64,000 bases of DNA from Candidatus Kerfeldbacteria bacterium (GCA_047946875.1 CP181398.1:777041-841040), one strand, 5' to 3'; numbered from the stretch's first letter, positions 5,308 to 41,484 are shown. The notes: generated by a model from the letters alone, not told the origin. Numbers and translations are program-made.

Positions 5308-8300
5308 TTATAACTCAATTATATCCCATATCGTTCCTACGCCAGGTATAGTTCCTTGTAAATTCCATGTTATCCCTTCATCATCCGAACGTGCAACATC
5401 ACCATTGCTTCCATAAACATATAATGCTCCATCTAGAACTTCTATTACTCCGCTCGAAATCGAGGCAGTGCCAACGTTAGTCCAAGTTACTCCATCATTA
5501 TTTGAACGATAAATTTGTGTAGCGGGACCGGACCCGACAGCCGCAAATAAATCACTATTAAATAAAACAATTGAGGATACCATTGTATAAATTCCAAAAT
5601 CTATCTGCATATTCCATGAAATACCATGATCAGGGCTAAGGTATATTCTGCCATACTGATCGTTTAATGCAGATGCTACGTCCTCGAAACGTGCGCCTAC
5701 AATTAAATTGCTATTTTGTTCAATTACCGCATCAACTCTCTTTACATCTACTCCTAAATCGCCGGGGTCGTCAAACCAAGTAATACCGTCATTTAATGAA
5801 TAAAACATATCACCATTTTCTTGAGTACCCGCCCAAAGGTCGCCACCAAAATCAATAATCGACCAAACGCGTATAGCACCCGCCAAATCACCGCTAGGAT
5901 TCCAACTTGCGCCACCATTATCTGAATAAAAAATATTACCTCCAGGACGAGTACCTGCCAGTAATCTATTATTATGATTAAGTATTATATCAATATTACC
6001 AGCATCAAATCCACCGATGGTTAAATTGGCTGTATCATACCACGTTGCCCCATTGTTATCTGAACGATAAATATTTCCATCAGGGCTTGAACCAACATAA
6101 TACGAACCTAATCGTTCGACAAAAGAATCTGCGTACACTTGTCCAGGTAAATCAACAATATGAGTCCAGGTGGCTCCACTATCATTTGTACCCCATATCC
6201 CTCCACTAACATTACCGGTAGCAGCTAAAAAGGTTGCGGCAGCAGGACAATCGGTGTCAGTTGCGAATGTACATACAGGAGCGCCTACTCCAGAAGGACA
6301 ACATCCGTTCCCATCTTGACATCCACAATCTGGATCTTGGACAACAGAACACAAAAGAGGACAACCACCACCACAGAGAGGTGTAGTTGGCACACAAGCA
6401 GGAGCCGCACCACCAAATGCATAAAGAGTAAACACAAAATCTACATCATTGGCAGGATTTACCAAATCAGCAAGTTTTATCCAATTATTACCATTGTCAG
6501 TTGATCTATAAACTGCAGCGCTTGTAGTACCAATAAACATTGCATTGTTATCAGAGGCTGAACTAATTATATTTAAAGCACCTGCGGGTACAGTTCCAAG
6601 GGCTGTCCATGTCCCAATACCAGATCTTCTATAAAAATTTTCACTATCTCCTCCAGCATAAACGAATCCTCCATTTTCCATTAATGTGTATATAGCAAGT
6701 GTAGGCATATTAGTAACAGTCCAAGTTACTCCACTATTTGTAGATTCATAAATATGTCCATTTTGACTAGCAACAATAATTGAACTTCCAAAGGATAATA
6801 TCTCACTTATAGTCCCTCCTCCGGTATCCATTACTTCAATACATGGTAAGGCTCCAGCAACGCATCTATAAACTTTACCGGTAAGCAATCCAGCATAAAC
6901 ATCAGAACCATCTTGAGCCAGGGCATCAACTTGAGTAGTAAAAACAGTCAGTAAATTCCACGTAGTTCCCAAATCAGATGATGTGAAAATTCCTTCATCT
7001 GTAGCTGCATATATTTTACCACCAAAAAATATGAGATCTTCAGCATCACCTGATGTACCAAGAGGATTAGGAGTAACAGCCCAATTAAGACCTCCATCGT
7101 TAGATATAAGAACAACATGTCCCCCTCCGGGTCCAAAAGAACCTTGTAAACCAGCAAATAAAACACCACCAACATTCAGAAAGGATTCAGGATAAGACGT
7201 ACCACCAGCACTAAAATTATTATTCCAAGTGGAACCGCCATCATTAGTTAAAAAAATATCTGCAGTTGAACCGGAATGTGTACCTACCATTATATCCGCA
7301 GCTATCGGTGGAATTGCCGGCGGTGGACAATCATTATCAGTTGCAAATGTACATCCCAATCCTGCAGGACAACACCCATTGTTATCTTGGCATGCACAGT
7401 CAGGATCTTCTACTATCGTACATATAGGAGGGCAAGCTGGGATACCACCACAGAGAGGGACACTAGGAACACAAACAGGGGCACCACATGCACCAGCCAC
7501 ACTAGGTATATTATCATAAAAACTAATATTGCCAGCGTTATCTTCTGCTATCACGTCTACATAAAATGATGTATTTGAAATATCAGAAGTCCAAACACCT
7601 TCAAAAATATTATCTAAGTCTGGGTCTGTCATTGCTACAGGATTATTAGCACTAATTACTGATATTCCATCAGGATTTTGTAATACTGCTTGTACACTAG
7701 CTATACCATCAGCGTCTGTAACCTCAGCCCTAAAACAAAAGTCAGTGCCTGTACCACCAGTAGGCGGATTAACAGTTGGCATGATAATTTGAGGTCCACC
7801 ATTTCCTCTAACATTAACCAATATTTCAATACTTTCACTCCTATTCCCAGCTGTATCTACTGCCTCTGCTTGAATAGAATGCCAACCATCAGTCAATACA
7901 TCTGTATTAATAGCATATGAGTATGGAACCAACGGATCAACAAACTGTCGATGATAATCAATATAGAAATTTACATGCTGAACACCACGATTATCATTAG
8001 CGTCTACTTCAATATCTATATCACCAACTACCGCTGTACCATAAATTGGCGTTGGTGGATGTATAAAAGATATTGTTGGCGCGATCTTATCATTCATCTC
8101 ATTATCTACAGGAATAGTTATAGTAGCACTACCAATATTCCCATACATATCATATGCATCTATCCGAATATCATGCTCTTCATTAAGATACCCTAAGGTG
8201 TCCCATTCCCAAGTCCATTGATTGTTAGCAACATGAGTTGCATTACCTCGGAAAATATTATCAACAAAAACTTGAACATAATCAATCCAATTCAAATCAT

Positions 8301-11300
8301 CTACTGTAATATCTATATCAATTACATCTTTTCTTTGACATATTATTCCAGCTCCACATGGAGTAACTTGATTACAAGGCGGGCCAACACCTGAACAAGT
8401 ACCCGGAATATTACCAATAGTAACTACTGGAGCAGTAGTATCAAAATTTTCTACCTTTACAAAAATAGTTTTAGTAGAAACAAGCGTTGTGTTATCTGTC
8501 GCCGTAGCTATAAGTGTATAAATACCATTTGGCGTATCTGGAGCAATTGGTGGACCAGTACAATCCCCAACAGTATCCCAAAGGTGTGTACCAGAATATG
8601 GATTTGATAATCCTCCAAACACATGAAGGGCACAAGGAGTTTCTACCCCATCACTATCAAACGCATGTATTTCTACACCTATAATACCGCCATCATCAGA
8701 AGCGACAACATCTATTGGTACAGTCCCCGTAATAGTCTGACCATCTGCCAAAGAAATAATATCAATGAAAGGAGGATTGTTAACAACTCCAGAATTATTT
8801 ATTACTAAAGTATATGTAGGGCTATTGCTCCAATTTCCAACATTGTCATATGCTTTTAATAGTAAACTATGATTACCATCAACATACTCATTAGAAATAA
8901 AATTCCATGACCAACTAGCAGGATCATCATCTGTATACTTGTATTGACCATCGATATAAAATTCTACTTTAGCTACACCCGTAGCTGTAGCAATAGGCAG
9001 ATCAGTCAAAATAACTTCTACGGCCTGTGTTCCATTAACATTATTAAAAATATTAGCTACCGGAGCAACAGTATTTAAAGTAACCGCATCAAACTGAGGA
9101 CCAACACGATCTGTGATCGTCCCAGTAACATTCTTAAAATAATTAAAACAATTACAATCTGCATTAGTAAAAGAACTGCATGGATCAAACACTCCAGCCA
9201 AACCGATATTCCAAGTATTGAATCCCCCATATATTAAGTATTCTAAATGTCCATAAAGATCTACATTCTTACCATCTGGAGATACTATATATTGATAAGT
9301 ATAAGAATTTGAAGGGCAGAAATATTCTTGATTTGTATCATCCCAACAAGTACTTGTATTAAAAGGTGCTAAACAAATATCAAAAATATTATAAGGATCA
9401 GTCGGCATACTCAATCCAAGACTTGAGCCCAACTTATCACTCCAAGAAGGCCAACCTGAAGAAGTAAGATTTTTGATATAAGTACCTCCTTCTAGTTTTG
9501 GAAATTCTCCATTTATTTCTTTATATTCCAAAGCGCCAGTATAAATGTCATTAAGATCACTAACTCTCTTCATATCTCGATGCATTTTTTCTTTATTAGT
9601 ATCTGTATCATTAATAGTAAATTTCCAATTAGCTAACAATGCATTATAAATACTTAATGTTTCAGCAGAAGCTCCTTCGTTATATGAAATCAAATATAAT
9701 TGTGGGTATAAGGCATCTCCAACCTGTGCTGCACCGTCAAAACCAGTACCTGAGATATTCCAAGCTGCTACATATACTGTTCTACCTGACCTGATCGCGT
9801 TATATCCATCCACTACAATATCTTGTGGGGCTGGGGCAGCAGAACCAAAATGATTAAAATACCATTCTCTAGCTGACTTACCTTCTTCATTTTCATAAAC
9901 CCTAATACCAATCGCATCGTCTGACAAATCTCGTAAGAAGAAAAATTCTTTTAATAATTCATCCACCCCAATAGTACTAGGTGTACCTTCATGAACCACC
10001 GTATCAATCACTAGTTTTAAGGTTGGTAACCCTCCATCAAGGCAATACCAAGTAGAAAAATTAGTATCAAAGTTATTATTGGTAGTAATAGTATCTATTT
10101 TAGGATATTGAACAGAATCTTCAAATGGTAAAGTTTCGCCAGCACTAACATTTGGCCAAGGACTCTCACATAAAATATTCCTTATGGAAACATTCTGGGT
10201 CAAAGAACCATAATCCGTACTAGCAACACCTATGCTTAACGAAGCTGCTCCATTCTGATTATTTGAAGTTATATATCGAGCATTTGGTGGACCTGGGTTT
10301 GTAGTTGTAAAAATATCTATTGGATCATTCTCGGTCCATGTCCAGGTAAAAGAACCGATGGTAAGATTTTGATTATTGTTATCACGGGGCGCTGCAGTAT
10401 ACGCATGCTGATTACCTGCCAAGCCTGGTACTGGTACATAATCCCCAAGACAAGCATCTCCTGCACAAGTAAATAAATCACCATAATCTGAAATGTCATA
10501 AGTGTATAATGGTAAAATAGTTGATTGAACTAATAAGTTATCAACCTGACAAATAATATCCCCCGTTGTAAATGAAATATGAAAATCAAGATATGGATCA
10601 GGGTATACATTAGAAGTAAAATAGGGACCTGGTTCCATAGCAATGCCTTGCGTAGATAACACTCCTTCCGGACCTGCTTTCATATACAAATCATAATTTG
10701 TAGTTTGATCCATTAGACCTGTTGGACTGATTATTATTTCATCTCCGGCCAAACTTACAGAAGCCGTAAATGGAATAGACACTCCACCATTTTCTAAAAT
10801 AATATTAGTATCATTAACAGTAGCTGGATCAATAGCAGCGCCAGCAAAATAAATAGATATTGATGCATTCCTGCATACATTACCCGCACCATCAGCTGGG
10901 ATAGTACTCGTAACATCTGGGCGATTATAACAGCAAGTATCTTTACCACAAAACTCTGTACCACACTGCGCATCACCAGGGGCTGGGTCCGAAGGATCAT
11001 AATCACAACCACAATACAGACCTCTTTGATTATTGGTACAATTACCTTTATTAGCTACGCAAGTCAAACCTGTGCTAGAAATTTGCTGATCATTTGGCTC
11101 ATTCAGTACATTATTATTATTAACATCTGGATCACAACATGTTATACAACTATTATTTGCAGGTACTCCTATAGTTGTTATTGTTTTTGGAGGAGCATCA
11201 AAATCTCCATTCCCATCTGGATCAAGATTTCCAGAATTATCTATACAACGATAATTATTGTCTGTAACTAAAGGTGCCGGTGCCCCACAAAATCCATTAC

Positions 11301-14300
11301 TTGTAAAATTTGCCGGCAGTTGACATGCACTTCCTGGACCACCTAAACTACAAAATCCACCAGATGGATCACATATATTAGTAGTAGTATTACAACAACT
11401 CCCAAAACCTGCATCGATACAGTGACTATTATTACTACAACTGATGCCAAAATTTACCTCATTAGAATCACAATACAATGGTCCCGCAGGTTCAATCACA
11501 GAAATTCTAGTCTTGCCAGTAACAGCACCCAAAGGCACTGTAACATTATCAAAAGTTGTATCAAAACCTTGCCCAGTAATATCATTAATATATCCTCCAA
11601 CTCCGTCATCAAATCGAGCTATCGTTTGTGGTGTATTATTCAAAGTTAAATTATAACCATTATAGGTAATTGGGTTAGTCCCTTCATAAGCAGCTGCTGG
11701 AACAACATTACATAACCCAGGTAAACCCGTTATCGGTGGTTGCGCACCACTAGCACATAAGTTTGTTGCAGTAAACATTACTGTTGGCGCTTGTGCTGCA
11801 TTTGATAATCCATCGACTGTATTAATCCGTACACCATACAGACCTATAGCTGGTACATTTACAGTTGCGATTATTTCACTATCTGTCCAAGGATTAGCAC
11901 AATTGAAGATTCCAGGGTTCCCACCAAATTCCAGAACTCCAGTAATATTACCAAAATTACATCCAGTAATTGTTACTGTAGTACCAGTCGGACCAGAGTC
12001 AGGATTAAGTCCCCAACCAAGAGGTTGTATAGGTGGTAATGGAACCGTCAAATCACCCACCCAAGGAGTACATTTAAAAGTAGTCAAATCACAAGTACTA
12101 TGATTACCGTCAACAGGACAAGCGTTTTCACAATCAATATTATTAGTACAATCATTAATAGTTAACTCCCCTTGAATAGACGCATTACCGGGACCAATAA
12201 TATCCTGAGCCGACGCCTCAACGAATACTGGGGTTCCGTCGGTATTAACGTCAGTATGAATAACCGCATTATTACCACCTGGATTTGGAGGAACGATTGG
12301 GATTGTGGCACGTGCAGGACGTGGCGGTGCTGGATCAACTACCGTCCAAGTCCAATCAAATCCAATTGGATTCAATACTTGTCCAGCTAAGTTACAAGAA
12401 TCAGGAAAACCAACCGCAGAACCTATATAATTTAAATTTAGATTAATTTGTCTTGTAATAGGTATGCCAGGATTCATAACAACATTATCTATCTCACAAA
12501 CAGTCGGATCAATCCTTGTTTTGAATGTCCATGAATATGCATCAAGAGTTCCATCATCACTATCATCGAAATTCAAACCCCCTAAGCTACTTCCAGGGAT
12601 AGCATTAATTTCTATCCCTTTCATTAAAACAACTCTATAATATGTATTTGGTGCAAGATTAGCATTAGGACTAATATCGATATTAGTAAAAGTAGTGAAA
12701 ATACTAGTTGGATTATTACCTATCTGAGCTAAGCCAGTTACAAAGCTACAACTAGAATCTGTACAACTATATAATTTTACATTAGCAGCATTAATAGAAG
12801 CTGTGACGTCATAACTTACGTCAGCCTGAATCATCGCATTAACACAAGCGCTATCACAAACAGGACTTCTATTAATGACGACTGGATGGTTTGGAGGAAT
12901 AGGCATAACTGTAAAATCTACTGGATTACTGGCCCCAGCATTATTTATGATGGTTACAGCATTAAGTCCAAAAGTTGCAATATTAGGAGCAATACTTGGC
13001 ACCTCTGTGCTAATAAAATTATCAACCCAAGAATTAATTGGAGCGTCATTTGCATCAAAATTTACTACTTGAGTCACATTATGAGGATCAAATCTTATAC
13101 CTGATAAACTCACCGTCGTACCATGATAACCACTAGCTGGATTTATCCCCCAAATACAAGGTCCACCTGAAATATTAGGATCACTAACATAATAATAAGC
13201 ACCAAGATTATCAGACGTAGCCACCCCAAAGGCTGGATCAATATAAGAAATCTCAATTTGTGGCTTCGGTCTCTCAAACTGCACAAACGGTGCAGGAATC
13301 GTACTTGTTAGATTTGTAGCTGTAACCCCGCCAACTATACCAGGAGTAATTGGTGCTGGTGGTGGTGGTATAATATTGTGATCAGTAAATTCGAAATTTG
13401 TAATTGTTGCTGGATGCGCTGTTGTACCTTGAAAACAAGAACCAACTACTGTAATACACTGTTCTCGTAATCCACTACCTGGGGCAATATGTGATATATA
13501 TGGAGCACACTCACAAAGATCTGGAGTAGTTACTGAAAAACTCCAATCATATAGCAATGGATTTAAATCTTTATCTATTGGTTTATTTGTAATGACATGC
13601 ACCGTGTAATCTACTCCGGAAACTAATGGTACTGGATTAAGGGCGGCATCTGCTGGATGAAATTGAAATACTCTAAAATGATTATTTATCACATTACCAG
13701 CCACAGATAAATCCACGTCATCAATTATTTCTATATAACCACCAATACCATAAATAGCATATGGACCAGCTGGTGGACGAGTAGAGGCGTCTATCATGGC
13801 CTCAAAATGATCTCCATTAGAACCATCTATCATAATAGTAACTTCATCATAATACATGCTTGTATTGAAAGGTACGGTAATAACAATATCAGGACAGACT
13901 AATAAATCACCAGGAGCTGGATTTACTAGTCCCACGCCAGGAACCAAATCATTAGTTTGAAATTCCCAAGGCAGATAAGCAACCATGTCATTGCCACACA
14001 AATCTTGTACTCCTGATACTGTTACTCGATACCATGTAAATGGCTCCAAAACTAATCCAGCATCAAGATGAACACTAAAACCTTGTGGCGTAATATAAAC
14101 ATTAAGATCAGTAGTATTATTTACTGTACTATCTACAGCACCAAGCTGACCATCTAATTGCTCAAGTACAAAATTTGCTACTATTGGATGCCCAGGATTC
14201 ATTGAATCATCTATAGTCGTCGCATCTATTGCTTCATTAAAATTTATACTAAATATTGGGACTCTAGTTACATCTCTGTCTTCATAACTTGGACTTGCCT

Positions 14301-15252
14301 GATCAGACAATGGATATGTAGAAACAATTTCGGGATCAACATCATCTACTGTAGTACCTACTTCAAACTGCCAATAATATGCATCATCAGTAGCTCCTGT
14401 TAGCGGATGATCATCTAAAATAGCGCCAGCTAAAGCATCAGCCAATGGATTAGACTTATTATCAGTTACTGATATAGGTATCCATAATCTGTAATTAGTA
14501 TTTTGAACAAGACTGCCAAATAAAGTATCATCATGCTTCAAAGTAAAACCATTATTGAATGTTACTAATTCAAGCGGGGTTAGAAAAGGTGTGGCAGGAG
14601 GGCTAGGATAATGCCATCCACTCCAAATACCTGAGCCTTGTGGCAGAGTTTCTTCTTCAATATATATTAAGTCAGAATTGTCACCAGCAAATACGGCTGC
14701 AAAAGTAGCTGGATCAATTTTATTATTAAACACAGACTGTAACCTACTACACATAGTTACATCCACAGCCCAATCAGTTCCAGAAGCAACACTTGTCTGA
14801 GTATAATTCCAAGTAAACTCATATGGTGGGAAAACACTACTAGAACCACTACCCGTACCAGGACCACCAGTAACTTTATTAGCTGTATCAACTATAAAGG
14901 AAACAATAGCCCAAGATAATAAAACAATCACCAAGCCAATAGCAGCTTGGGTAATAATTTTCTTAGCTTTGGCAATTTTATCTTCGTTACCAGCTGCAGT
15001 CATCCAAATAAATCCACCGTAAATCATCATTATAACCGCCACTAAACCAAGGAATCCTAAAGCCCACTGTATGATATTAATGATTGTTGACTCTAAATCT
15101 GCCGTACCTAAACTCAATGTAGTACCAATATTTGGGTCTACGGTCACAGCATATACCTGACTTGCAACAAGTAATCCACCAGCAATCAAAATGAATACAA
15201 ACAAACCTGTGAATATTCCAAAAAATATATTTTTTTTATTTCGTACCCCCAT
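5308..15252 (-). CDS. Giant secreted surface protein, 3314 aa. It has an N-terminal signal-anchor plus two-helix pilin-like hydrophobic segment, T/N/G-rich Ig-like/beta-rich repeats, two Cys-rich modules and two BNR/Asp-box (SxDxGxTW) beta-propeller-like repeat blocks at the C-terminus.
   Basis: Single 9945-nt ORF with ATG at 15252-15250. N-terminus MGVRNKKNIFFGIFTGLFVFILIAGG, then IINIIQWALGFLGLVAVIMMIYGGFIWMTAAGNEDKIAKAKKIITQAAIGLVIVLLSWAIV. C-terminal third contains about 11 Asp-box motifs (SNDGGLNW, SSDLGTTW, STNSGVTW, STDNGNNW, TNDSGATW, SDNNGATW, SDNGGASW, SLNDGITW, SPDHGISW, SNNDGVTW, SDDEGITW). Two CxxC-rich linkers are present (CGAPVCVPSVPLCGGIPACPPICTIVEDPDCACQDNNGCCP and ACVPTTPLCGGGCPLLCSVVQDPDCGCQDGNGCCP). 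Confidence 0.85.
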   Translation of the reverse strand: MGVRNKKNIFFGIFTGLFVFILIAGGLLVASQVYAVTVDPNIGTTLSLGTADLESTIINIIQWALGFLGLVAVIMMIYGGFIWMTAAGNEDKIAKAKKIITQAAIGLVIVLLSWAIVSFIVDTANKVTGGPGTGSGSSSVFPPYEFTWNYTQTSVASGTDWAVDVTMCSRLQSVFNNKIDPATFAAVFAGDNSDLIYIEEETLPQGSGIWSGWHYPSPPATPFLTPLELVTFNNGFTLKHDDTLFGSLVQNTNYRLWIPISVTDNKSNPLADALAGAILDDHPLTGATDDAYYWQFEVGTTVDDVDPEIVSTYPLSDQASPSYEDRDVTRVPIFSINFNEAIDATTIDDSMNPGHPIVANFVLEQLDGQLGAVDSTVNNTTDLNVYITPQGFSVHLDAGLVLEPFTWYRVTVSGVQDLCGNDMVAYLPWEFQTNDLVPGVGLVNPAPGDLLVCPDIVITVPFNTSMYYDEVTIMIDGSNGDHFEAMIDASTRPPAGPYAIYGIGGYIEIIDDVDLSVAGNVINNHFRVFQFHPADAALNPVPLVSGVDYTVHVITNKPIDKDLNPLLYDWSFSVTTPDLCECAPYISHIAPGSGLREQCITVVGSCFQGTTAHPATITNFEFTDHNIIPPPPAPITPGIVGGVTATNLTSTIPAPFVQFERPKPQIEISYIDPAFGVATSDNLGAYYYVSDPNISGGPCIWGINPASGYHGTTVSLSGIRFDPHNVTQVVNFDANDAPINSWVDNFISTEVPSIAPNIATFGLNAVTIINNAGASNPVDFTVMPIPPNHPVVINRSPVCDSACVNAMIQADVSYDVTASINAANVKLYSCTDSSCSFVTGLAQIGNNPTSIFTTFTNIDISPNANLAPNTYYRVVLMKGIEINAIPGSSLGGLNFDDSDDGTLDAYSWTFKTRIDPTVCEIDNVVMNPGIPITRQINLNLNYIGSAVGFPDSCNLAGQVLNPIGFDWTWTVVDPAPPRPARATIPIVPPNPGGNNAVIHTDVNTDGTPVFVEASAQDIIGPGNASIQGELTINDCTNNIDCENACPVDGNHSTCDLTTFKCTPWVGDLTVPLPPIQPLGWGLNPDSGPTGTTVTITGCNFGNITGVLEFGGNPGIFNCANPWTDSEIIATVNVPAIGLYGVRINTVDGLSNAAQAPTVMFTATNLCASGAQPPITGLPGLCNVVPAAAYEGTNPITYNGYNLTLNNTPQTIARFDDGVGGYINDITGQGFDTTFDNVTVPLGAVTGKTRISVIEPAGPLYCDSNEVNFGISCSNNSHCIDAGFGSCCNTTTNICDPSGGFCSLGGPGSACQLPANFTSNGFCGAPAPLVTDNNYRCIDNSGNLDPDGNGDFDAPPKTITTIGVPANNSCITCCDPDVNNNNVLNEPNDQQISSTGLTCVANKGNCTNNQRGLYCGCDYDPSDPAPGDAQCGTEFCGKDTCCYNRPDVTSTIPADGAGNVCRNASISIYFAGAAIDPATVNDTNIILENGGVSIPFTASVSLAGDEIIISPTGLMDQTTNYDLYMKAGPEGVLSTQGIAMEPGPYFTSNVYPDPYLDFHISFTTGDIICQVDNLLVQSTILPLYTYDISDYGDLFTCAGDACLGDYVPVPGLAGNQHAYTAAPRDNNNQNLTIGSFTWTWTENDPIDIFTTTNPGPPNARYITSNNQNGAASLSIGVASTDYGSLTQNVSIRNILCESPWPNVSAGETLPFEDSVQYPKIDTITTNNNFDTNFSTWYCLDGGLPTLKLVIDTVVHEGTPSTIGVDELLKEFFFLRDLSDDAIGIRVYENEEGKSAREWYFNHFGSAAPAPQDIVVDGYNAIRSGRTVYVAAWNISGTGFDGAAQVGDALYPQLYLISYNEGASAETLSIYNALLANWKFTINDTDTNKEKMHRDMKRVSDLNDIYTGALEYKEINGEFPKLEGGTYIKNLTSSGWPSWSDKLGSSLGLSMPTDPYNIFDICLAPFNTSTCWDDTNQEYFCPSNSYTYQYIVSPDGKNVDLYGHLEYLIYGGFNTWNIGLAGVFDPCSSFTNADCNCFNYFKNVTGTITDRVGPQFDAVTLNTVAPVANIFNNVNGTQAVEVILTDLPIATATGVAKVEFYIDGQYKYTDDDPASWSWNFISNEYVDGNHSLLLKAYDNVGNWSNSPTYTLVINNSGVVNNPPFIDIISLADGQTITGTVPIDVVASDDGGIIGVEIHAFDSDGVETPCALHVFGGLSNPYSGTHLWDTVGDCTGPPIAPDTPNGIYTLIATATDNTTLVSTKTIFVKVENFDTTAPVVTIGNIPGTCSGVGPPCNQVTPCGAGIICQRKDVIDIDITVDDLNWIDYVQVFVDNIFRGNATHVANNQWTWEWDTLGYLNEEHDIRIDAYDMYGNIGSATITIPVDNEMNDKIAPTISFIHPPTPIYGTAVVGDIDIEVDANDNRGVQHVNFYIDYHRQFVDPLVPYSYAINTDVLTDGWHSIQAEAVDTAGNRSESIEILVNVRGNGGPQIIMPTVNPPTGGTGTDFCFRAEVTDADGIASVQAVLQNPDGISVISANNPVAMTDPDLDNIFEGVWTSDISNTSFYVDVIAEDNAGNISFYDNIPSVAGACGAPVCVPSVPLCGGIPACPPICTIVEDPDCACQDNNGCCPAGLGCTFATDNDCPPPAIPPIAADIMVGTHSGSTADIFLTNDGGSTWNNNFSAGGTSYPESFLNVGGVLFAGLQGSFGPGGGHVVLISNDGGLNWAVTPNPLGTSGDAEDLIFFGGKIYAATDEGIFTSSDLGTTWNLLTVFTTQVDALAQDGSDVYAGLLTGKVYRCVAGALPCIEVMDTGGGTISEILSFGSSIIVASQNGHIYESTNSGVTWTVTNMPTLAIYTLMENGGFVYAGGDSENFYRRSGIGTWTALGTVPAGALNIISSASDNNAMFIGTTSAAVYRSTDNGNNWIKLADLVNPANDVDFVFTLYAFGGAAPACVPTTPLCGGGCPLLCSVVQDPDCGCQDGNGCCPSGVGAPVCTFATDTDCPAAATFLAATGNVSGGIWGTNDSGATWTHIVDLPGQVYADSFVERLGSYYVGSSPDGNIYRSDNNGATWYDTANLTIGGFDAGNIDIILNHNNRLLAGTRPGGNIFYSDNGGASWNPSGDLAGAIRVWSIIDFGGDLWAGTQENGDMFYSLNDGITWFDDPGDLGVDVKRVDAVIEQNSNLIVGARFEDVASALNDQYGRIYLSPDHGISWNMQIDFGIYTMVSSIVLFNSDLFAAVGSGPATQIYRSNNDGVTWTNVGTASISSGVIEVLDGALYVYGSNGDVARSDDEGITWNLQGTIPGVGTIWDIIEL
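10026..15252. repeat. Copy 2 of the ~5.2-kb direct duplication (5' half of the 3314-aa gene)
   Basis: Same as copy 1. Identity ends exactly at the start-codon region: both copies share ...aaaaaatatattttttttatt and then diverge (MNKK... versus MGVRNKK...). Upstream regions are unrelated. Confidence 0.9.
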
Positions 15253-16070: not shown

Positions 16071-16227
16071 CTCCTTTTCAATATTTTTTTAGTTATTTAA
16101 TATTAATAATATACCACTTATTTAGCACTATTGTCAATTAATGTTATTAATATATTAGAAAAAACAACAAATATATTGTTTAATAATATTCATTAGCTAA
16201 TGTTAGCAATTATTGTTCTTTTTTAAG

Positions 16228-16268
16228 CTGTCCGCCCCCGCCTACGTCGTCACTTTGGCGGGCAGGTC
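16228..16268. other. GC-rich palindromic hairpin (ccgcccccgcc...ggcgggcagg) in an AT-rich intergenic region
   Basis: A ~40-nt island of >70% GC with inverted repeat CCGCC/GGCGG arms between rpsU and the HIT gene. No T-tract in terminator orientation. Resembles the GC-rich inserts in the tRNA-Val loci. Confidence 0.4.
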
Positions 16269-16591
16269 TAGAGGTCTGCCAAAAAATGTATATGTAGATG
16301 CATTACTTCTTGCCCACAATCTTTACCAGTATTTACTACCAACTTATACCCTTTTTCATTTAATCCTAGATTATTTGCAATTTCTTTTGTCCCTAACATC
16401 ATATCTGACAACAACTTACTATCATCCATATCTAGATGTAACATCGATTTGATATGTTTTTTCGGTATAAACAAGTAATGAATCGGCGCCTTAGGAACAA
16501 TATCTTTGATTACTATAAAATTATCTCGATCTAAAATATATTCCGTGGGTATTTCTTTGTTTATTATTTTACAAAAAATGCAATCATCCAT
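16268..16591 (-). CDS. HIT-family (histidine triad) nucleotide hydrolase
   Basis: 107 aa. Histidine triad HLHIHFL near the C-terminus and N-terminal CIFCKII motif typical of HinT-like proteins. Confidence 0.85.
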   Translation of the reverse strand: MDDCIFCKIINKEIPTEYILDRDNFIVIKDIVPKAPIHYLFIPKKHIKSMLHLDMDDSKLLSDMMLGTKEIANNLGLNEKGYKLVVNTGKDCGQEVMHLHIHFLADL

Positions 16592-18749: not shown

Positions 18750-18811
18750 TGGTGGGTTCGAGAGGAGTTGCCCCGCAGTGCGGGATCCCGTTCGCGAGAA
18801 ACCTCTAAATT
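18750..18811 (-). other. Truncated duplicate of the 3' 28 nt of tRNA-Val(GAC) (T-arm 5' strand to CCA), interrupted in the T-loop by a 29-nt GC-rich palindrome
   Basis: 18750-18770 (tggtgggttcgagaggagttg) is identical to 18852-18872, the tRNA 3' end. 18805-18811 (aacctct) matches 18873-18879. The intervening ccccgcagtgcgggatcccgttcgcgaga forms a CCCGCA/TGCGGG hairpin. No 5' half of a tRNA is present. Confidence 0.6.
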
Positions 18812-18851: not shown

Positions 18852-18928
18852 TGGTGGGTTCGAGAGGAGTTGAACCTCTGACCTCCACAATGTCAATGTG
18901 GCGCTCTAACCAACTGAGCTACGAACCC
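18852..18928 (-). tRNA. tRNA-Val (anticodon GAC), CCA encoded
   Basis: The reverse complement GGGTTCGTAGCTCAGTTGGTTAGAGCGCCACATTGACATTGTGGAGGTCAGAGGTTCAACTCCTCTCGAACCCACCA folds as a canonical cloverleaf. Anticodon loop is TTGACAT; discriminator is A73. Confidence 0.9.
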
Positions 18929-18948
18929 AATATAAATAGTCCTATGAA

Positions 18949-19081
18949 TGGTCGAGGCTGAATTCGAACCAGCGACTTCTGCAATGTGAATACAGCGCTC
19001 CCCGCCCGTACCAAACGGGTACGTTCGGGCGGGTAACTTCATCCCGCCTGTTCTAGGCGGGGCAAGCTGAGCTACACGACC
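18949..19081 (-). tRNA. tRNA-Val (anticodon CAC) interrupted by a 62-nt GC-rich structured insertion in the D-loop (intron-like, or a pseudogene)
   Basis: The reverse complement reads GGTCGTG TA GCTC AGCTTG [62 nt] GAGC G CTGTA TTCACAT TGCAG AAGTC GCTGG TTCGAAT TCAGC CTCGACC A. All canonical positions are in place (U8, A14, U33, anticodon CAC, A37, T54-T55-C56, A58, A73) apart from a U6-U67 mismatch. No encoded CCA. Confidence 0.65.
19001..19062. repeat. 62-nt GC-rich palindromic insert inside the tRNA-Val(CAC) D-loop: two hairpins CCCCGCC-n7-GGCGGG and CCCGCCCG...CGGGCGGG
   Basis: cccgcccgtaccaaacgggtacgttcgggcggg taacttcat cccgcctgttctaggcgggg. >70% GC in a ~30% GC context, with two perfect inverted repeats. 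Confidence 0.7.
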
Positions 19082-19229
19082 ACATTATCTTAAGCGCTGA
19101 TACAAGATTTTTGATATTAAATTAATATTACCAATTCATCAAAAAAACCCTTTAAATACGTAATAATTGGTACAATTATACCACAAAAAAACAAAAAGTC
19201 AAGAAAAAATACCTACCTAAATCAATGCA

Positions 19230-22895: not shown

Positions 22896-23807
22896 TTATT
22901 CTGTCCAATAAAATAGCATGATACTAAAGTCAACAATATTTACTATACCATCACTATTAATATCTGCTCTTTCATTAGCAGGATTTGCTGTATTCCAATA
23001 AAATAATAAAATACTAAAATCAACTAAATTCACAAAAGTATCACAATTAATATCCCCAGGTAATGCGCCATCACAAATATTTGGCTCATCAGCCGTTACA
23101 TTAAATATAACACTTTTACTAAATTCTGAGACCGCATCATTTACAGGTTCTATGGCTTGAGCCTTTGCCTCATGAGAGCCTTCTGCTAAATCATCAGCAT
23201 CATATAACTGTATCCATCTACCATTTGTATCAGCACTGGCTATACTTACTGCAATATGTTGTTCTCCAGCCGCAGCCCCGACCACTGGTGATGTTAATGT
23301 TACATTTACTTCACTATCAGGCACAGTAGTCCCTGATAAAGTAATAGTTTCACCACTAGAAATATTGGTTTGATCAGCTTCGATTGTCGGTCCTAAAAAG
23401 ATACCGCTGATCGTAGTAGTAGTACCTGTAGTTAAGGTTAATGTAAAATTTGATTGTTTACCCTCTAAACCATCTTGATCAAGACCAATCACAGAAAAGG
23501 TATAAGTGCCTGGATCAATAATTGCAGAAACTTCAAAGATTGCCTGAGATGTTGTAGAAATAATAGACAAAATTGATCCATCCTGACTAAAAGTCACAGT
23601 AGCAGATGGATAAGCTATCCCTCGAAATACAACTGTAGTATCTGGATCTTCTAATGGAGGTTCAGAAGCAACTGTAGCTGTAACAATAACCTGCTGAGAA
23701 GATTGTGCATCTACATAAGATACAACAGAATATCCCGCGACCAATAAGATCAGCGGGATAATCAGATATACAAAAAATTTAATTAAGTTAGGTCTTCTTT
23801 TTTTCAT
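22896..23807 (-). CDS. Secreted Ig-like/beta-rich protein with a C-terminal type-I dockerin domain
   Basis: 303 aa. N-terminal signal-anchor. The C-terminus carries two calcium-binding dockerin repeats: GDINCDTFVNLVDFSILLFYW and ADINSDGIVNIVDFSIMLFYW (D-x-N-x-D-G-x-V-N-x-x-D-F). Confidence 0.7.
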   Translation of the reverse strand: MKKRRPNLIKFFVYLIIPLILLVAGYSVVSYVDAQSSQQVIVTATVASEPPLEDPDTTVVFRGIAYPSATVTFSQDGSILSIISTTSQAIFEVSAIIDPGTYTFSVIGLDQDGLEGKQSNFTLTLTTGTTTTISGIFLGPTIEADQTNISSGETITLSGTTVPDSEVNVTLTSPVVGAAAGEQHIAVSIASADTNGRWIQLYDADDLAEGSHEAKAQAIEPVNDAVSEFSKSVIFNVTADEPNICDGALPGDINCDTFVNLVDFSILLFYWNTANPANERADINSDGIVNIVDFSIMLFYWTE

Positions 23808-26969: not shown

Positions 26970-29900
26970 TTAATATAAACTTGTAGCAACTATTGTAATA
27001 GTAGAAGTATAAGCTCCTGCATCAGTTAAACCGCTAATAGAACCTAATATACATAATTCTGTTTGATGAGTGCTAACAACACCTGTGGCCCCTGCAAAAG
27101 TCTGAAGTGAGGTCGTTAAAGCGGTAGCATTCGATGTAGTCCCCGTATCTGCACAAGAAGTAGGACTCCAAATACCAATATCATATCCAGATCTCGATGA
27201 AGATGCACCATATTCCTCTGTGCCAGCTACGATAGTCCCTCCTGTAGTATCAGCAATCGTATTACCTATTGAAGTCAATGAATTATCATAATAAACCGAT
27301 GCTTGATATCCATTGGACGCATCAGTACTTACTGTCAGAGTCACTCCGTCCTGACTTACCAACGACTCTAATAATGTACCAAGATCAATACTGTTTGGAC
27401 TCAGGGATACTGTCATACCTACGAATAACCAACAATCGTTATTTTGAGAATTTACATTTGTCCCACCGGTAGCATCTATAGTATCTCCTCCACAAGCATA
27501 CGAATCTTGAACATCAGTATAAGTAACTATCTGCGTACCATCACTAGTCAGATTCCATTGAGTACCTGGAGTTGATGAGCGTAAAGTAACTAAGTTTCCA
27601 GAGGTGCCATTGAAACTTACGTTATTAAAAGTATAAGTACTACCCGCATTAAATTCTAATTGGGTATTGGCGGTATCAGCCGTGAAATTATTATCAACAT
27701 CAGCGGCTGCCGCAAAATCAACATCCGGATCAGAAGCGCCAGCATTTGTAATTGTAAGATTATAGAATCTATCGGAAGTACCAGTCATTTGACCCGATAA
27801 TATTTGCTGAGAAGAACCGTCTAGATAGACTGTACCGGACTGATCAGTGAAATTATCATTATTAGTCCAATCTCCCGCAAGATATATTGCATTGTCCTCT
27901 CCACTTTTTACATCTAGAGTACCACCGGTTATTAATAAATCATTATTTATATCAAGAATGGATTCAAGGGTAAAGGTAATATTATTTCCCGTATCATCAA
28001 AAGTAATATCATTGAAGTCGTCTGTAGTAGCGCCGGTAGAATCTATTGTCGGTGATCCGCTTGTAGCATCAAATGTTATAGTACCCGATCTGCATAAAAA
28101 TATATCATCATTATCCCAGCTTCCGCCAACTGTGATCGCATTATTTTCACCACTTACCGCATCCAGATGACCGTTTGTAATTGTAACGTTGTTAAGCACA
28201 ACTAACGGATCTTCTACTTCAACAATTAAATTATAAGTGCCAGCACCGTCATCTATAACGAGATTATAGAGTGAGCCAGTACCAGCGGTAATAAGATCAC
28301 TGGTTATATCACTCACAGAAGATGGTATATTAAAGGTTAAAGTAGAACCGACATTCGTTCCAGCGCTATTTAATAATGAAGCGCCTGACTGTAAATCAAA
28401 CTTACCATCTGTATTCATCTGTGTGCCATCTGTTTCTACATCATCATCAACATCCAAAGTACCGCCACCCGAGCCAGCATCAGTGGAAATAGTAATGCCA
28501 CCCAAACCAATATCAAGATCATATCCATTTGTATTAAGTATATCACCATCATTAATAGTTAGAGTTTTAGCTAATAAATCACTGGCTAGATCAGTGGTAT
28601 CCGGAGAAGTACCTATTTCCAAATTACCGACATCCTGCTGTGGTGAAGTATTGTCCGTAAAGGTCAAATCCCCATCCAGTATTAATTCTCCTGTTCCAGC
28701 GGTAGCGTTATTAAATGTCGTTCCGGACGCCAAGGTAAAATTACCTGCAGCATTGAGATTGCTATCTACTTCCTGCGTAAACACACCCGTATCGGCTATA
28801 TCAAACGTACCATTCACATCCATTGCATCAGCGCTAGCAACACTGCCAGTACCTGACACCTTAAAATTCTGCAATGTTTGGCTGGCTGAAGTAACGGTCT
28901 TTGTCGCGCCGGTCATGTCAATTGTCGATGTTCCAGCAGTGACTGTACCACCGGTCATATCAAGATTACCAGCCATGGTATGAGTAGCATTTGCCAGGGT
29001 AACAGAGCCTGAAAGAGTTAAATTTTGTAATGTCTGTGAGGCGGAAGTAAGGGTGCCAGTGCCATTCATTACCAAAGTATTACCTGAAGTAGCCGTGTAG
29101 GTTCCGTCAGTAAAATTCACATTACCGGAAACAGTCCAAGTTCCAGTGCCTGAGGTAATTATTTCAGATCCATCATCCGCACCGATGAAGTCAAAATCTC
29201 CCTCAATATCAAATGCTGGATTATTCGTCACGCCGGCAAACGTAACATTCTGTGTGCCGTCAGCTATGATATATAAATTACCGTCAATATCCTGGGTTGC
29301 CGTTGCAAGCGGAGTAATCGTGTACGGCGTGCTGTTATCATCATTAAATATTTCCACATCACTGCCATATGTGCGCGCGGGCATAGTCGTGGTATTGCCA
29401 TTTGATGTATCAAAGCGCACCAGTGAACTTAATGTACCTGCAGTAGGTATCGTGGTACCGGAATTAATAGTCAGACGGCCGGCGCCAGAAATCGTACCGT
29501 CAAGCGTGAAACCGCTACCGGTCCATGTGACCGTTCGGCTTGTTTCGATAGCAAGTGAATCTCCCGTATCAACATCAAGTGTATTGCTTACTAACGGATC
29601 GTCAGCCCCCGTATCAGTATCAACGGTGATCGTATTCGTCGTTGCACCGTCTCCAATGGTGAGATCATAAAATGTAGTGTCGCCCAAACCATTAATATCA
29701 TGGCTTGCCACGTTTTCACCGGTAAGTGTTACACTACCGGTCCCCGGGGTAAAATTTCCACTGTTGTTTGTCCAGTCACCCTGTACTTCCATTGCTTCAC
29801 CTTGTGCATCAAAATATATACCACTATCAAGTGTGTAGTTTCCCTTCAACACCAATAATTGCTGGCTCGCGTCATTACTCAATAAACACGGCGTACCGAC

Positions 29901-32900
29901 CGTACCGCGGCTGATTTGCAGATTATAAAATTCAGGCGCATCATCACTCCACTGGTACACCTGGCCTTGAGCAGAACTCGCGCCTGACGGATCATCAATG
30001 ACTATAGTCCCGCCGGTAACCGTCGTGGTAGTAAGTGGTTTCTCATTGTACACGATAAACGAACGGCCAGTTAATGTACCGCCGGTCATATTAAAAGTTA
30101 CTGTCTCTCCGCCGTCATTATGCCGCGCGAGTTCAATGGCTCCATCCGCAACAGTACTCGCCCGCACCGTTCCACCCGCCAGCGTGATTATCCCCTGATT
30201 CAAATTAATGTTAGTACCAACATCCACGCTGCCGTCATTGAAATTAGTAATCTGCGAATTACTTCCGCGCATGTTTAACGCACCCGTAACATCAACATTA
30301 GCTCCTGTATTGAAATTGAGAGTACCGGCTTCTTGCCAAATATTGCCGGCAACCGTCACTGCGCTTGCTATTGTTGCTGTACCACCATTAACATAAAAAT
30401 TATCCTTAACATCCACGGTTCCGCCACTAAACGAATTGGTGCCGCCGTTTATTATTAAGTCTTCTGTCGTACCATTACCAATCGTGAGTGTACCCGCGGT
30501 AACATTTATATTCCCGGCAGATGTTATATTATCTCCATTTACTGTTGCGTCGGCACTCACATTAAGTGTTGCATTCGCATCAATGTCTATATCCAGACCA
30601 ATAATCGATGTTGCCGTATCAAGATGAACTGTGGCATTGTCATCAATGTGCAGATTACCGCCAGTTGCGTCAGTGGTTACCATACCGCCAGGATCAAATG
30701 TATCACCGGTCCACGCATGCAGCTCCATGCCCGACTCTGTTGTCAGCGCGCCCGCAATAACCGCATACCGTATGCCAGCATCAGCATTATCACCGGTCAA
30801 TAACTTAGCGTTTGTCATTGGCCCGGCATTCTCATGTCGAACAATCATCCTATTTTGGTATAGATTAAGTCCGGAAATATTCGACGATATGTCAGCCGCT
30901 AGTGTTGCTGTAGTCGCATGTGGTGTTTCGCTATTATCAATATAGAGCACTATAGGATCGCCACCAGCTGTTGGATCTGTTGCCGGGATAGTGAACGTAC
31001 CACCTGCACTATCGCATTCATACTCGGATGCAGTTCCGCCGTTTGTTGCCGCGTGGACTGTCAATGGATCTGCGGAACAGTCATACACACTTATACCATC
31101 ATCACTGTAAATCGTTCCGGTCAACGTAATACCATCAAATATCCAGCAGTCGTTATTTCCGGAATCAGTGTTGGTGCCATTTGACGCATCAATCCAGTCG
31201 CCGCCGCACGCGTACGAGTACTTTACATCAATGTATGATACATCGGTCTGCGTGCCGGTTACCACCAAATTCCAGTCGCTGGTCGTAGAACTTTGGAACG
31301 TTATTTCATTTCCGACACCTGAAGAACCGGCCCAGTTGATATTTGGAAACGTATACGTCGATCCCGCTTCATATTCAACAGTAACGCCCGCTGTTGTAAT
31401 TGTATAGTTATTTTCGGTTTCAACGGCTGCTCCGAAATCAACAGTTCCGCCACTATTGGTAATAGTTAGGTTATAAAAATCAGAAGAACCTGTCATAGTG
31501 CCTGACAATGACTGAGTAGAAGAACCGGCCAAAACAACAGTTCCATTGTTATCAGTAAACGTGCCATTATTGGTATAGTTACCATTAATATCAAGTGTTG
31601 AACTACTGGAAGCAGATAGCGTGGTAGCAGTATCAATACTCACGTCTCCACTCACTACTAATGATGGATCGTTGGTATTCAAATCTACCGTGGTTGCGCC
31701 GGTACCATCTTGGATAAGTATTAAATCACCAGAGATTGGATACGACCCCGATGCGGCTGTAATAGAATTTGATGAATTACTTCCATACAACTCCACATCC
31801 CCTCCGTACGTACGGGCATCAAATGTAGTATTGGCAATATTACCAGCACTGGCATCATAGCGGACAATACTATTGATCGTTCCTCCCGTGCCAGGACCAG
31901 CGGATGTATCAGTAAACCTAAGTGTGCCAGCTCCTTCAACAGTACCTAAATTAGCAAAAGTTGAGCCGGTATGTGTTACTGTACGACCAGCGCCAATCGA
32001 GAGTGTACCACCCGCACCAAAATTTCCATAAGCACTACTGATTGTGAAATCCGTATTTATAACCGAGATAGCTACATCAGACGCCGAATCAAGTTTGAAA
32101 TCATAAAAAGTTTCCCCGCCAACATCTATAGTATTGTCAGCGCCATGCATTATAACTTCTCCGGTCCCTTCTATTAAATCTGTCAGATCGGCCTTAATAT
32201 ATAGATCACCATAAACACTTATATCGCCACTGATATCATAGGTGCCACCACTATCCGGATCGAGCGAAAGATTATCAAAACTTCCACCCCCCGACACAGT
32301 TACTGAGCCAGTATTAGTAAATTTAAATGTTGAATCCTCTGTCGTTTTATTAACTATAACCATACTTGTTATTGGTGTACCACTTCCTGACATTTCCCAT
32401 GTCTTAGCGCCACCTGCTGCAGCTGAAAGTTTAGCAAACCAAACATCGTCCCCTGCTCCAGCACACGTATCCCTTGCTAATGTATTTGTTATCTTGATAT
32501 CACCACTACCCGTAGCTGACAGTATTCGATCTCCACTACACGCCCCTATAATATCAAAATATAAATCATAAAATGTCCACGTACTACTATTGCCACCAAT
32601 ATTACCTGCAGCGGGCAGCCCAACAGTTACTGTCCCACCGGTCATTGTGATAACGCCATCACCTGTAATATCCCCGCCGTTGGCGGTAAGATCGTTTGAA
32701 CCGGTCAGTGTCGTGCCGGTACCAACGGTGACATCACCGTTTGTAGTCAGCGCATCAGCTAAGGTAATGGTGCCGGTACCGGATGTCTCAAAATCATACA
32801 GAGATTTACCCGCCGCGGTGAGTGAGGGAGTAACACCGTCCATTACCAAAGTATGCCCAGAAGTGGCTGTAAATGTATCACAATTAGTAAGGTCTACGTT

Positions 32901-41270: not shown

Positions 41271-41484
41271 TTTTTTTGGGTGCTTATTTTTTTTACCTAG
41301 TTTAAACACTTTAAATATATGCAAAACTTTTTTATTATTTTAGCTTTGCTTAAGTTAGCAAAAAATTTAACTTAACTTAACAAACATAACAAAACTATTA
41401 TATAATATTATTATGATTTTGTCCAATAAAAATAACTCTCATCATCTTTATAAATGATTCGAATGATTTAAATTATGATTAAAC

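Follow-up and report, generated by a model that had tools for sequence, protein, structure and literature searches.

In a 64,000-nucleotide (nt) stretch of a Candidatus Kerfeldbacteria genome (GCA_047946875.1 CP181398.1:777041-841040; hereafter the window, meaning the whole stretch analyzed), we found that a tRNA-Val(CAC) gene with a complete cloverleaf carries two GC-rich palindromes inside its D-loop. These palindromes are most likely two insertions, made at the DNA level, of small selfish elements, and not an intron. The longer of them, here called element X, belongs to a multi-phylum family of near-invariant palindromes that has a hot spot in the tRNA D-loop. The preliminary description of this locus had left the choice between an archaeal-like intron and a mobile palindromic element, and it is the latter that is supported by the occurrence of X in many copies and several phyla and by its preference for tRNA.

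The interrupted tRNA-Val(CAC) gene

Read on the minus strand from 19081 to 18949, the gene has the order GGTCGTG-TA-GCTC-AGCTTG-(62 nt)-GAGC-G-CTGTA-TTCACAT-TGCAG-AAGTC-GCTGG-TTCGAAT-TCAGC-CTCGACC-A. Its acceptor stem (GGTCGTG/CTCGACC, with a U6.U67 mismatch), D-stem (GCTC/GAGC), correct anticodon loop and discriminator A73 are all present and in register, as described earlier; the sequence itself, its fold and ARAGORN applied after removal of the insert all confirm this assignment. When the insert was deleted in silico, ARAGORN called tRNA-Val(CAC) in 94 of 130 boundary variants. With the insert in place, the D-stem strands are 68 nt apart, compared with 9 nt in relatives, and the gene is missed both by default ARAGORN and by Rfam at its gathering threshold. 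The Rfam tRNA model recognizes the part 3' of the insert at 27.6 bits (gathering score 29) and skips the D-arm. ARAGORN with intron detection switched on (18948-19082) returned a tRNA-Arg(ACG) with a 46-nt anticodon-loop intron. We rejected this call, in which the D-loop insert is forced into a wrong model; such a miscall could spread through automated annotation. More broadly, tRNA finders silently miss palindrome-hit genes, which in reduced genomes of the Candidate Phyla Radiation (CPR) may look like the lack of an isoacceptor.

The 62-nt D-loop insert with two hairpins stands as first reported, although comparison with AGTTGGTTA, the ancestral loop found in relatives, puts the truly extra DNA at 59 nt in two blocks (there is one extra base as well). 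The first block, of ~25 nt, lies between G18 and G19 and contains a 19-nt palindrome, whereas the second, the 33-nt X, sits precisely between A21 and G22. The last four bases of the spacer separating the palindromes, GTTA, appear to be the retained D-loop nt 19-21. A GC content above 70%, as stated before, holds for the two hairpins (73-74%) but not for the whole insert (66%); the flanks have 31.5%.

The RNA fold of the locus (-58.2 kcal/mol, z = -3.7) keeps the acceptor, anticodon and T arms and renders the insert as two hairpins. AGCUU and AAGUU, the loop residues that flank the first palindrome, are base-paired to each other in this fold, and G18 and G19, ~25 nt apart, are both predicted to be paired. 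A normal D-loop has 7-11 nt and adjacent G18 and G19 free for the T-loop, a state that the window gene does not reach. Because of the AGCUU/AAGUU pairing and the separation of G18 from G19, the elbow between the D-loop and the T-loop should be blocked. The elbow is needed by RNase P, the CCA-adding enzyme and the ribosome. On this modeled structure, the window tRNA-Val(CAC) is probably inactivated; transcription of the locus probably continues, given that its promoter is conserved.

An archaeal-like intron of the bulge-helix-bulge (BHB) type, suggested earlier, is not supported by these data. The junctions consist of plain hairpin bases, and neither the minimum free energy fold nor the centroid fold contains a 3-4-3 BHB motif. 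Likewise, the 62-nt insert matches no Rfam intron family, group I and group II included, even at E <= 10. Moreover, a single tRNA position harbors X in either orientation, and most copies of X lie in non-tRNA DNA.

Element X, its target and the same locus in relatives

Members of the X family have the form CCCGCCCGAACGTACC-loop-GGTACGGGCGGG and are 32-33 nt long, with a short loop on a 5-bp inner stem, which a GAAC bulge separates from the 7-bp outer stem. A metagenome scan with the pattern CCCGCCCG-NNN-GTACC-N3-6-GGTACGGGCGGG matched at least 120 loci; the matches listed, to which all counts of X copies given here refer, comprise 127 copies in 115 distinct flanking contexts. The free bulge positions read AAC in 108 of these 115, and only the loop varies, being GTTC in 80 with a tail of variants. 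The host loci range from 28 to 58% GC. Exact protein look-ups, which named 2 of 13 proteins, identified as hosts Ca. Scalindua (Planctomycetota) and Bacteroidota; the window and the homologues of the GIY-YIG proteins discussed below belong to Patescibacteria, and X contigs L060 and L083 encode TonB-dependent outer-membrane receptors. Such a near letter-perfect 32-nt sequence shared by Patescibacteria, Bacteroidota and Planctomycetota implies a conserved protein partner and horizontal spread. X was absent from PLSDB plasmids (7.3 Gb), INPHARED phage genomes (2.3 Gb) and IMG/VR viruses.

Palindromes related to X, which have the same outer stem and GAAC/GTTC motifs but other inner parts, are common in the same loci. 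The 19-nt palindrome of the window is one of them: it has the outer stem and the GAAC motif in common with X and lacks the inner hairpin. The window has three occurrences of CCCGCC-N3-25-GGCGGG, with 0.00 expected, the third being next to a gene for a HIT-family protein (Table 1). In relative L026, a palindrome near-identical to the latter lies in the T-loop of a tRNA-Val(GAC) fragment, which indicates that a second palindrome family changes location too.

Several further ideas about X did not hold. The CGTTT loop variant of the window cannot serve as a lineage marker, as the identical 33-mer is present in an unrelated contig of 54% GC (L098). X does not represent the fused terminal repeats of a larger element, since no split X halves flank longer inserts. 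The notion that X simply inserts in the loops of other hairpins is weak: flanking stems of at least 6 bp accompany it in 6-9% of cases versus 0-3% in the control. Two contigs, L070 with five copies and L139 with three, have X at the same place in a repeated unit of 1.3-3 kb with both flanks conserved. In L045 and L122, X occupies the loop of hairpins resembling the published Ssn-related motif GTCATYCCGGG...CCCGGRAT, and in L122 this hairpin, a palindrome nested in a palindrome, directly follows a 94-aa GIY-YIG gene.

Comparison of filled and empty copies revealed that X inserts cleanly, with neither duplication nor loss of bases. Of the marks by which a mobile palindrome may be recognized, target-site duplication and a transposase were not seen. 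The target is a weak palindrome, GNTN/NANC (the slash denotes the insertion point), with G at -4, T at -2, A at +2 and C at +4 enriched. This preference persists when copies in tRNA are set aside (n = 92; p about 1e-4 to 1e-5 per position). The tRNA junction G19-T-T-A21/G22-A-G-C25 (GGTTA/GAGC, nt 21/22) fits the same target, making tRNA position 21/22 a hot spot. Indeed, among the matches listed, 25 of 129 copies of X lie in tRNA-derived DNA, which constitutes ~1% of the sequence searched (p about 1e-22). Of these 25, 17-18 are exactly at 21/22, and the others occupy 13/14, the anticodon loop or the T-loop. In tRNA-derived sequences with X at 21/22, the element is forward in 8 and reversed in 12. 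Both orientations at one site point to a DNA-level event at a palindromic target and not to an RNA-level feature. Taken together, the distribution of X suggests that it is mobile.

Useful relatives for comparison of the locus were obtained from LepB homologues; a HisRS scan of the genome collection returned only relatives of up to 47% identity, without tRNA synteny. An uninterrupted tRNA-Val(CAC) with the D-loop AGTTGGTTA is present at the syntenic site in L018, L022-L025 and L154. At the orthologous position, X is absent from all of these and present in the window and in L019. L019 has two truncated 5' fragments of the window-type gene, with the 5' end GGTCGTGTAGCT(C). The second fragment is composed of GCTC, a 43-nt GC-rich hairpin, AGTTGGTTA, CCCGCCCGAACGTACCGTTCGGTACGGGCGGG and GAGCGC, and ends after nt 27. 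The fragments are followed by an intact tRNA-Val(CAC) of other sequence. In this sister lineage, X is thus at the identical A21/G22 site of an abandoned gene, and the gene has been replaced. L154, for its part, has a different GC-rich palindrome at the same G18/G19 position as the first block of the window insert.

Numerous tRNA fragments bearing GC-rich palindromes crowd the region 5' of lepB, both in the window and in the majority of the relatives examined; the fragment in L027 is a 5' one. In L154 (1-620; LepB 68% identical), the resident tRNA-Val(GAC) is split at 21/22 by ~180 nt. The splitting segment contains a whole, different tRNA-Val(GAC) with halves of a GC-rich palindrome at both ends, and more 5' and 3' tRNA fragments are nearby.

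Fate of palindrome-hit tRNAs and the GIY-YIG cassettes

When X was deleted in silico, a complete tRNA was obtained for none of the 127 metagenome copies listed, and the tRNA similarity of X-bearing fragments ends between nt 27 and 45. The neighbor of the fragment is an intact tRNA in at least 12 cases. There are two recurrent arrangements. The first has an intact copy of the same tRNA 30-100 nt past the fragment (L038, L058, L060, L071, L100, L116, L131). In the second (L047, L048, L079, L065, L030, L049, L126), a GIY-YIG open reading frame (ORF) of ~80 aa with PF01541 as its sole domain extends from approximately the anticodon loop into the intact tRNA copy. The cassette proteins in X loci have 79-94 aa, likewise with PF01541 only, and the solved structures closest to the cassette protein are those of UPF0213 single-domain GIY-YIG proteins. 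The ORFs usually stop at the TAG of the invariant U8-A9-G10 of the intact tRNA (arrangement-2 loci and L151), and in L152 the start ATG is formed by nt 38-40 of a tRNA-Ala. With ends and starts on tRNA letters, the ORF is fitted exactly between tRNA landmarks. Across 716 kb of X-bearing loci, 14 of 20 GIY-YIG ORFs are within 30 nt of X, and X is almost always upstream.

Three loci reached through homologues of the L079 GIY-YIG protein, and not through X, have the same architecture (L149, L151 and L152; the L149 locus was also assembled as L150, and the metagenome-assembled genomes are named Paceibacterota/Patescibacteria). In each, a 5' tRNA fragment bearing X or a hairpin similar to it at 21/22 precedes the ORF, and an intact tRNA follows it. 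A nuclease ORF combined with a partial duplicate of its target was found in L047, L048, L079, L126, L149, L151, L152 and others, whereas the window locus is without such an ORF. D-loops with two hairpins, as in the window, also occur in L019, L112, L116, L121, L126 and L151. The repeated occurrence of tRNA fragment, ORF and intact tRNA in this order suggests how bacterial tRNA genes might come to be replaced by selfish nucleases.

Whether the cell can do without the window gene may be judged from codon usage. In the window ORFs, GUA accounts for 36% of Val codons and GUG for 12.5%. GUA is beyond the reach of both the GAC and the CAC anticodon and can be read only by a tRNA with U34. A gene for tRNA-Val(UAC) must thus lie elsewhere, and as this tRNA would read GUG as well, the cell could in principle dispense with the CAC isoacceptor. 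This weakens the earlier argument that the decoding of GUG depends on the window gene. Codon usage shows no sign of tRNA loss, the share of GUG being no lower than in L018.

These observations can be brought together in an explanation that we consider fairly probable, namely, that the insert represents selfish palindromes residing in a dispensable tRNA gene. X would be a selfish palindrome whose preferred target happens to match the point where the D-loop meets the 3' strand of the D-stem, and its insertions would last only in those tRNA copies that the cell can spare. Elsewhere, the spare copies would be fragments that GIY-YIG cassettes or tRNA replacements of another kind left behind; here, the resident tRNA-Val(CAC) itself would be the spare copy. 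In the 133-nt product, the D-loop residues would be locked in a three-way junction, most likely precluding the elbow and normal tRNA action. The leading candidate for the enzyme moving X would be a single-domain GIY-YIG nuclease.

A number of observations weigh against this explanation. Among the matches listed, the window gene is the only X-hit tRNA of full length, and no intact tRNA-Val(CAC) stands beside it. All its D-loop residues are retained, and its promoter is conserved. Outside the D-loop, the gene is no more diverged than intact orthologues are among themselves: of the 52 positions in its 3' segment, 3 are different in L154, where LepB identity is just 68%, and 6 in L018. The changes of its own amount to two C-to-T transitions that keep G.U pairs and one variable T-loop base. 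Furthermore, no nuclease or transposase gene was found in the window, and distribution is the sole basis for regarding X as mobile. Finally, the insertion in the window gene must be either recent or tolerated. If recent, the window and L019 would have been struck independently at the hot spot; if X in both derives from a single insertion, the gene has long been preserved with its insert, which argues for function. Identities of the LepB, HisRS and HIT proteins give a three-way split of the window, L018 and L019 that agrees with one insertion as well as with two.

A broader reading, speculative and in our estimate doubtful, would make X and its relatives the mobility or recognition module of an undescribed multi-phylum class of selfish elements. 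In this class, Ssn-like GIY-YIG nucleases would overwrite tRNA genes by partial duplication, and the palindrome would home to the D-, T- or anticodon-loop junctions of the displaced copies. The window would then represent an early or ORF-less stage with a sole-copy, full-length tRNA or, less likely, the first bacterial tRNA that works with structured hairpins in the D-loop. Were the nuclease to recognize X or the tRNA D-arm as single-stranded DNA (ssDNA), this would be a new specificity for the Ssn family.

It is also conceivable, though unlikely, that X is a working part of the tRNA-overwriting GIY-YIG cassettes, for example a recognition hairpin of the nuclease, and that the window gene is a relic of one. 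The route to such a relic would be recombination of an X-bearing 5' fragment with the intact downstream copy across a short repeat 3' of X, with loss of the ORF, yielding a full-length tRNA that carries X. In favor of a functional link are the proximity of X to most GIY-YIG ORFs and its nearly constant upstream position, as well as the presence of X or an X-like hairpin at 21/22 in all three independently found cassette loci. The X inside the SRM-like hairpin beside the 94-aa GIY-YIG gene of L122 and the resemblance of the cassette protein to solved UPF0213 structures point the same way, and so does the Ssn family, whose single-domain GIY-YIG proteins cut ssDNA at specific sites and are associated with repeats that form hairpins (PMC11893778). 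However, ~80% of the X copies among the matches listed are in neither a tRNA nor a GIY-YIG context, and no GIY-YIG ORF is present at the window locus or at the loci of nine relatives. X is also unlike the published NTS/SRM consensus, and survivorship in spare copies by itself accounts for the association.

That the gene still functions, either because the tRNA tolerates two D-loop hairpins or because an RNA-level activity removes them, seems improbable. Besides the points already raised, namely, the full-length cloverleaf, the D-loop residues all kept between or beside the hairpins, the conserved promoter and the lack of a replacement tRNA-Val(CAC) in the locus, its few substitutions preserve pairing, and GUG is used for 12.5% of Val codons. 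Yet there is neither a BHB motif nor a group I or II signature, and X is present in both orientations and mostly outside tRNAs. All 24 other tRNA-derived X contexts among the matches listed are truncated, and the same gene has been discarded in L019. Moreover, G18 and G19, 25 nt apart and predicted to be paired, should block the elbow, and CCA is not encoded here. An artefact of sequencing or assembly might also be considered, for instance an adapter-like hairpin or a chimeric join. A perfect-stem palindrome present in many unrelated assemblies looks technical at first sight, but the 115 distinct flanks, the natural loop variants, the site and target preference, the same site filled in the independently assembled L019 with diverged flanks, and the identical cassettes from NCBI, ENA, JGI and Logan assemblies render this scarcely credible.

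Genomic setting and known systems

LepB of the window is identical to a protein from a Candidatus Kerfeldbacteria metagenome-assembled genome, which places the host in CPR/Patescibacteria. The genes neighboring the interrupted tRNA are bacterial, encoding LepB (signal peptidase I), HisRS, the HIT protein, S21 and YqeY. The order CarboxypepD_reg protein, promoter, tRNA-Val(CAC), tRNA-Val(GAC), lepB and hisS is common to the relatives found via LepB homologues. The promoter-like site (Table 1) likely starts the transcription unit of the two tRNAs; its TTGACT...TATAAT block is also present 5' of the tRNAs in L018, L019, L022 and L023.

Table 1. Coordinates of the interrupted gene, its palindromes and nearby features in the window
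Feature	Position	Strand	Basis
tRNA-Val(CAC), full length including D-loop insert, CCA not encoded	18949..19081	-	sequence, Rfam, ARAGORN after insert removal, synteny
5' segment: acceptor GGTCGTG, U8A9, D-stem GCTC, D-loop start AGCTTG	19063..19081	-	sequence
19-nt palindrome, tRNA sense CCCGCCTAGAACAGGCGGG	19043..19061	.	DNA hairpin -8.7 kcal/mol, z = -5.2
Spacer between the palindromes, ATGAAGTTA	19034..19042	-	fold and comparison with L018 and L154 loops
Element X, 33 nt, tRNA sense CCCGCCCGAACGTACCCGTTTGGTACGGGCGGG	19001..19033	.	same element in metagenome contigs
3' segment: D-stem GAGC, anticodon arm (CAC), variable loop, T arm, acceptor 3' strand, A73	18949..19000	-	sequence, Rfam
Promoter-like TTGACT-16-TG-TATAAT, ~93 nt 5' of the tRNA	19175..19202	-	11/12 matches and extended -10
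tRNA-Val(GAC), intact, CCA encoded	18852..18928	-	ARAGORN; Rfam 74 bits
Displaced tRNA-Val(GAC) 3' fragment: AGAGGTT, 29-nt GC-rich hairpin (18771-18799), CAACTCCTCTCGAACCCACCA	18750..18806	-	21-nt exact repeat of the gene's 3' end
Third CCCGCC...GGCGGG palindrome, directly 3' of the stop codon of the HIT-family gene	16237..16262 (16226-16271)	.	pattern search

The intact tRNA-Val(GAC) has 0-2 differences compared with relatives. Its displaced fragment, 45 nt 3' of the intact gene, consists of the T-arm, the acceptor 3' strand and CCA, with the GC-rich palindrome in the T-loop. Interrupted tRNA-Val(GAC) fragments of identical type are found 5' of lepB in L026 and L153, and L057 shows a mirror-type arrangement. 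Further away, the window contains two giant ORFs, both on the minus strand (5308-15252, 3314 aa, and 26970-41324, 4784 aa). The region of the latter has 40-47% GC versus ~32% around it, and the homologue in one relative matches type IV secretion system (T4SS)-pilin and Ig-like domains. Beside the tRNA locus, the window encodes a dockerin protein (22896-23807, minus strand), and L018, L022 and L023 encode cohesin proteins.

Neither sequence-based nor topic-based searches of the literature turned up an account of X, of the D-loop hot spot or of cassettes composed of a tRNA fragment, a GIY-YIG ORF and an intact tRNA. Nevertheless, several known systems share some of these features. Small, imperfect, multi-copy palindromes thought to be moved in trans are represented by repetitive extragenic palindromes (REP) and bacterial interspersed mosaic elements (BIME), which have RAYT transposases, and by the Rickettsia palindromic elements, which resemble miniature inverted-repeat transposable elements (MITE). 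The latter also insert within genes, RNA genes included. X differs from all of these in being 32-33 nt long, nearly invariant across phyla and not lineage-specific, in causing no target duplication, and in having a defined palindromic target with a tRNA hot spot; moreover, no Y1 transposase was seen near X. GC clusters and double-hairpin elements of mitochondria, as well as the PstI palindromes of Neurospora, are GC-rich and mobile, reside in AT-rich genomes and are often near tRNA genes. They are organellar, however, have other sequences and flank tRNAs instead of occupying one constant position within them.

Free-standing homing endonuclease genes (HEG) of the GIY-YIG type include SegB in the tRNA cluster of phage T4 and HEGs of fungal mitochondria, which duplicate a portion of the gene they invade. 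The cassettes resemble them in having a small GIY-YIG ORF beside or within an essential gene and in leaving one intact copy plus a partial duplicate. The difference is that the cassette ORF stands between a 5' tRNA fragment ending at approximately the anticodon loop and a full tRNA. In the window locus, no such ORF is present.

With archaeal BHB introns, the window insert has in common that it is a short structured insert in a tRNA gene outside the anticodon loop. Apart from the absence of a BHB motif and the occurrence of X in either orientation and mostly in non-tRNA DNA, the window host is bacterial, and removing X would leave an abnormal loop unless the second element were removed too. A recent survey of tRNA introns in Patescibacteria covers only those of groups I and II. 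The group I introns are self-splicing, hundreds of nt long and located in the anticodon loop (e.g. 35/36), and the genes carrying them are missed by standard finders (PMC13011429). The window gene, from the same phylum, is likewise missed, but its insert has 59-62 nt, is in the D-loop and matches no Rfam intron family.

A parallel in physical organization is provided by Ssn nucleases, in which GC-rich NTS/SRM hairpin repeats flank 80-100-aa single-domain GIY-YIG genes in a manner resembling insertion sequences (Chenal et al. 2025, PMC11893778). In both cases, short multi-copy GC-rich hairpins are physically tied to small single-domain GIY-YIG genes. X does not match the NTS/SRM consensus (CGTCATTCCCGCG...GCGGGAATC), although it lies inside SRM-like hairpins in L045 and L122. 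It has a different sequence and a two-tier stem and is present inside tRNA arms and other hairpins, and the cassettes duplicate part of a tRNA gene; the Ssn paper makes no mention of tRNA (PMC11893778). While small mobile palindromes and free-standing nuclease cassettes are already known, the invariance of a 32-mer across phyla, its clean insertion at a fixed tRNA position and the overwriting of tRNA genes by partial duplication are unexpected.

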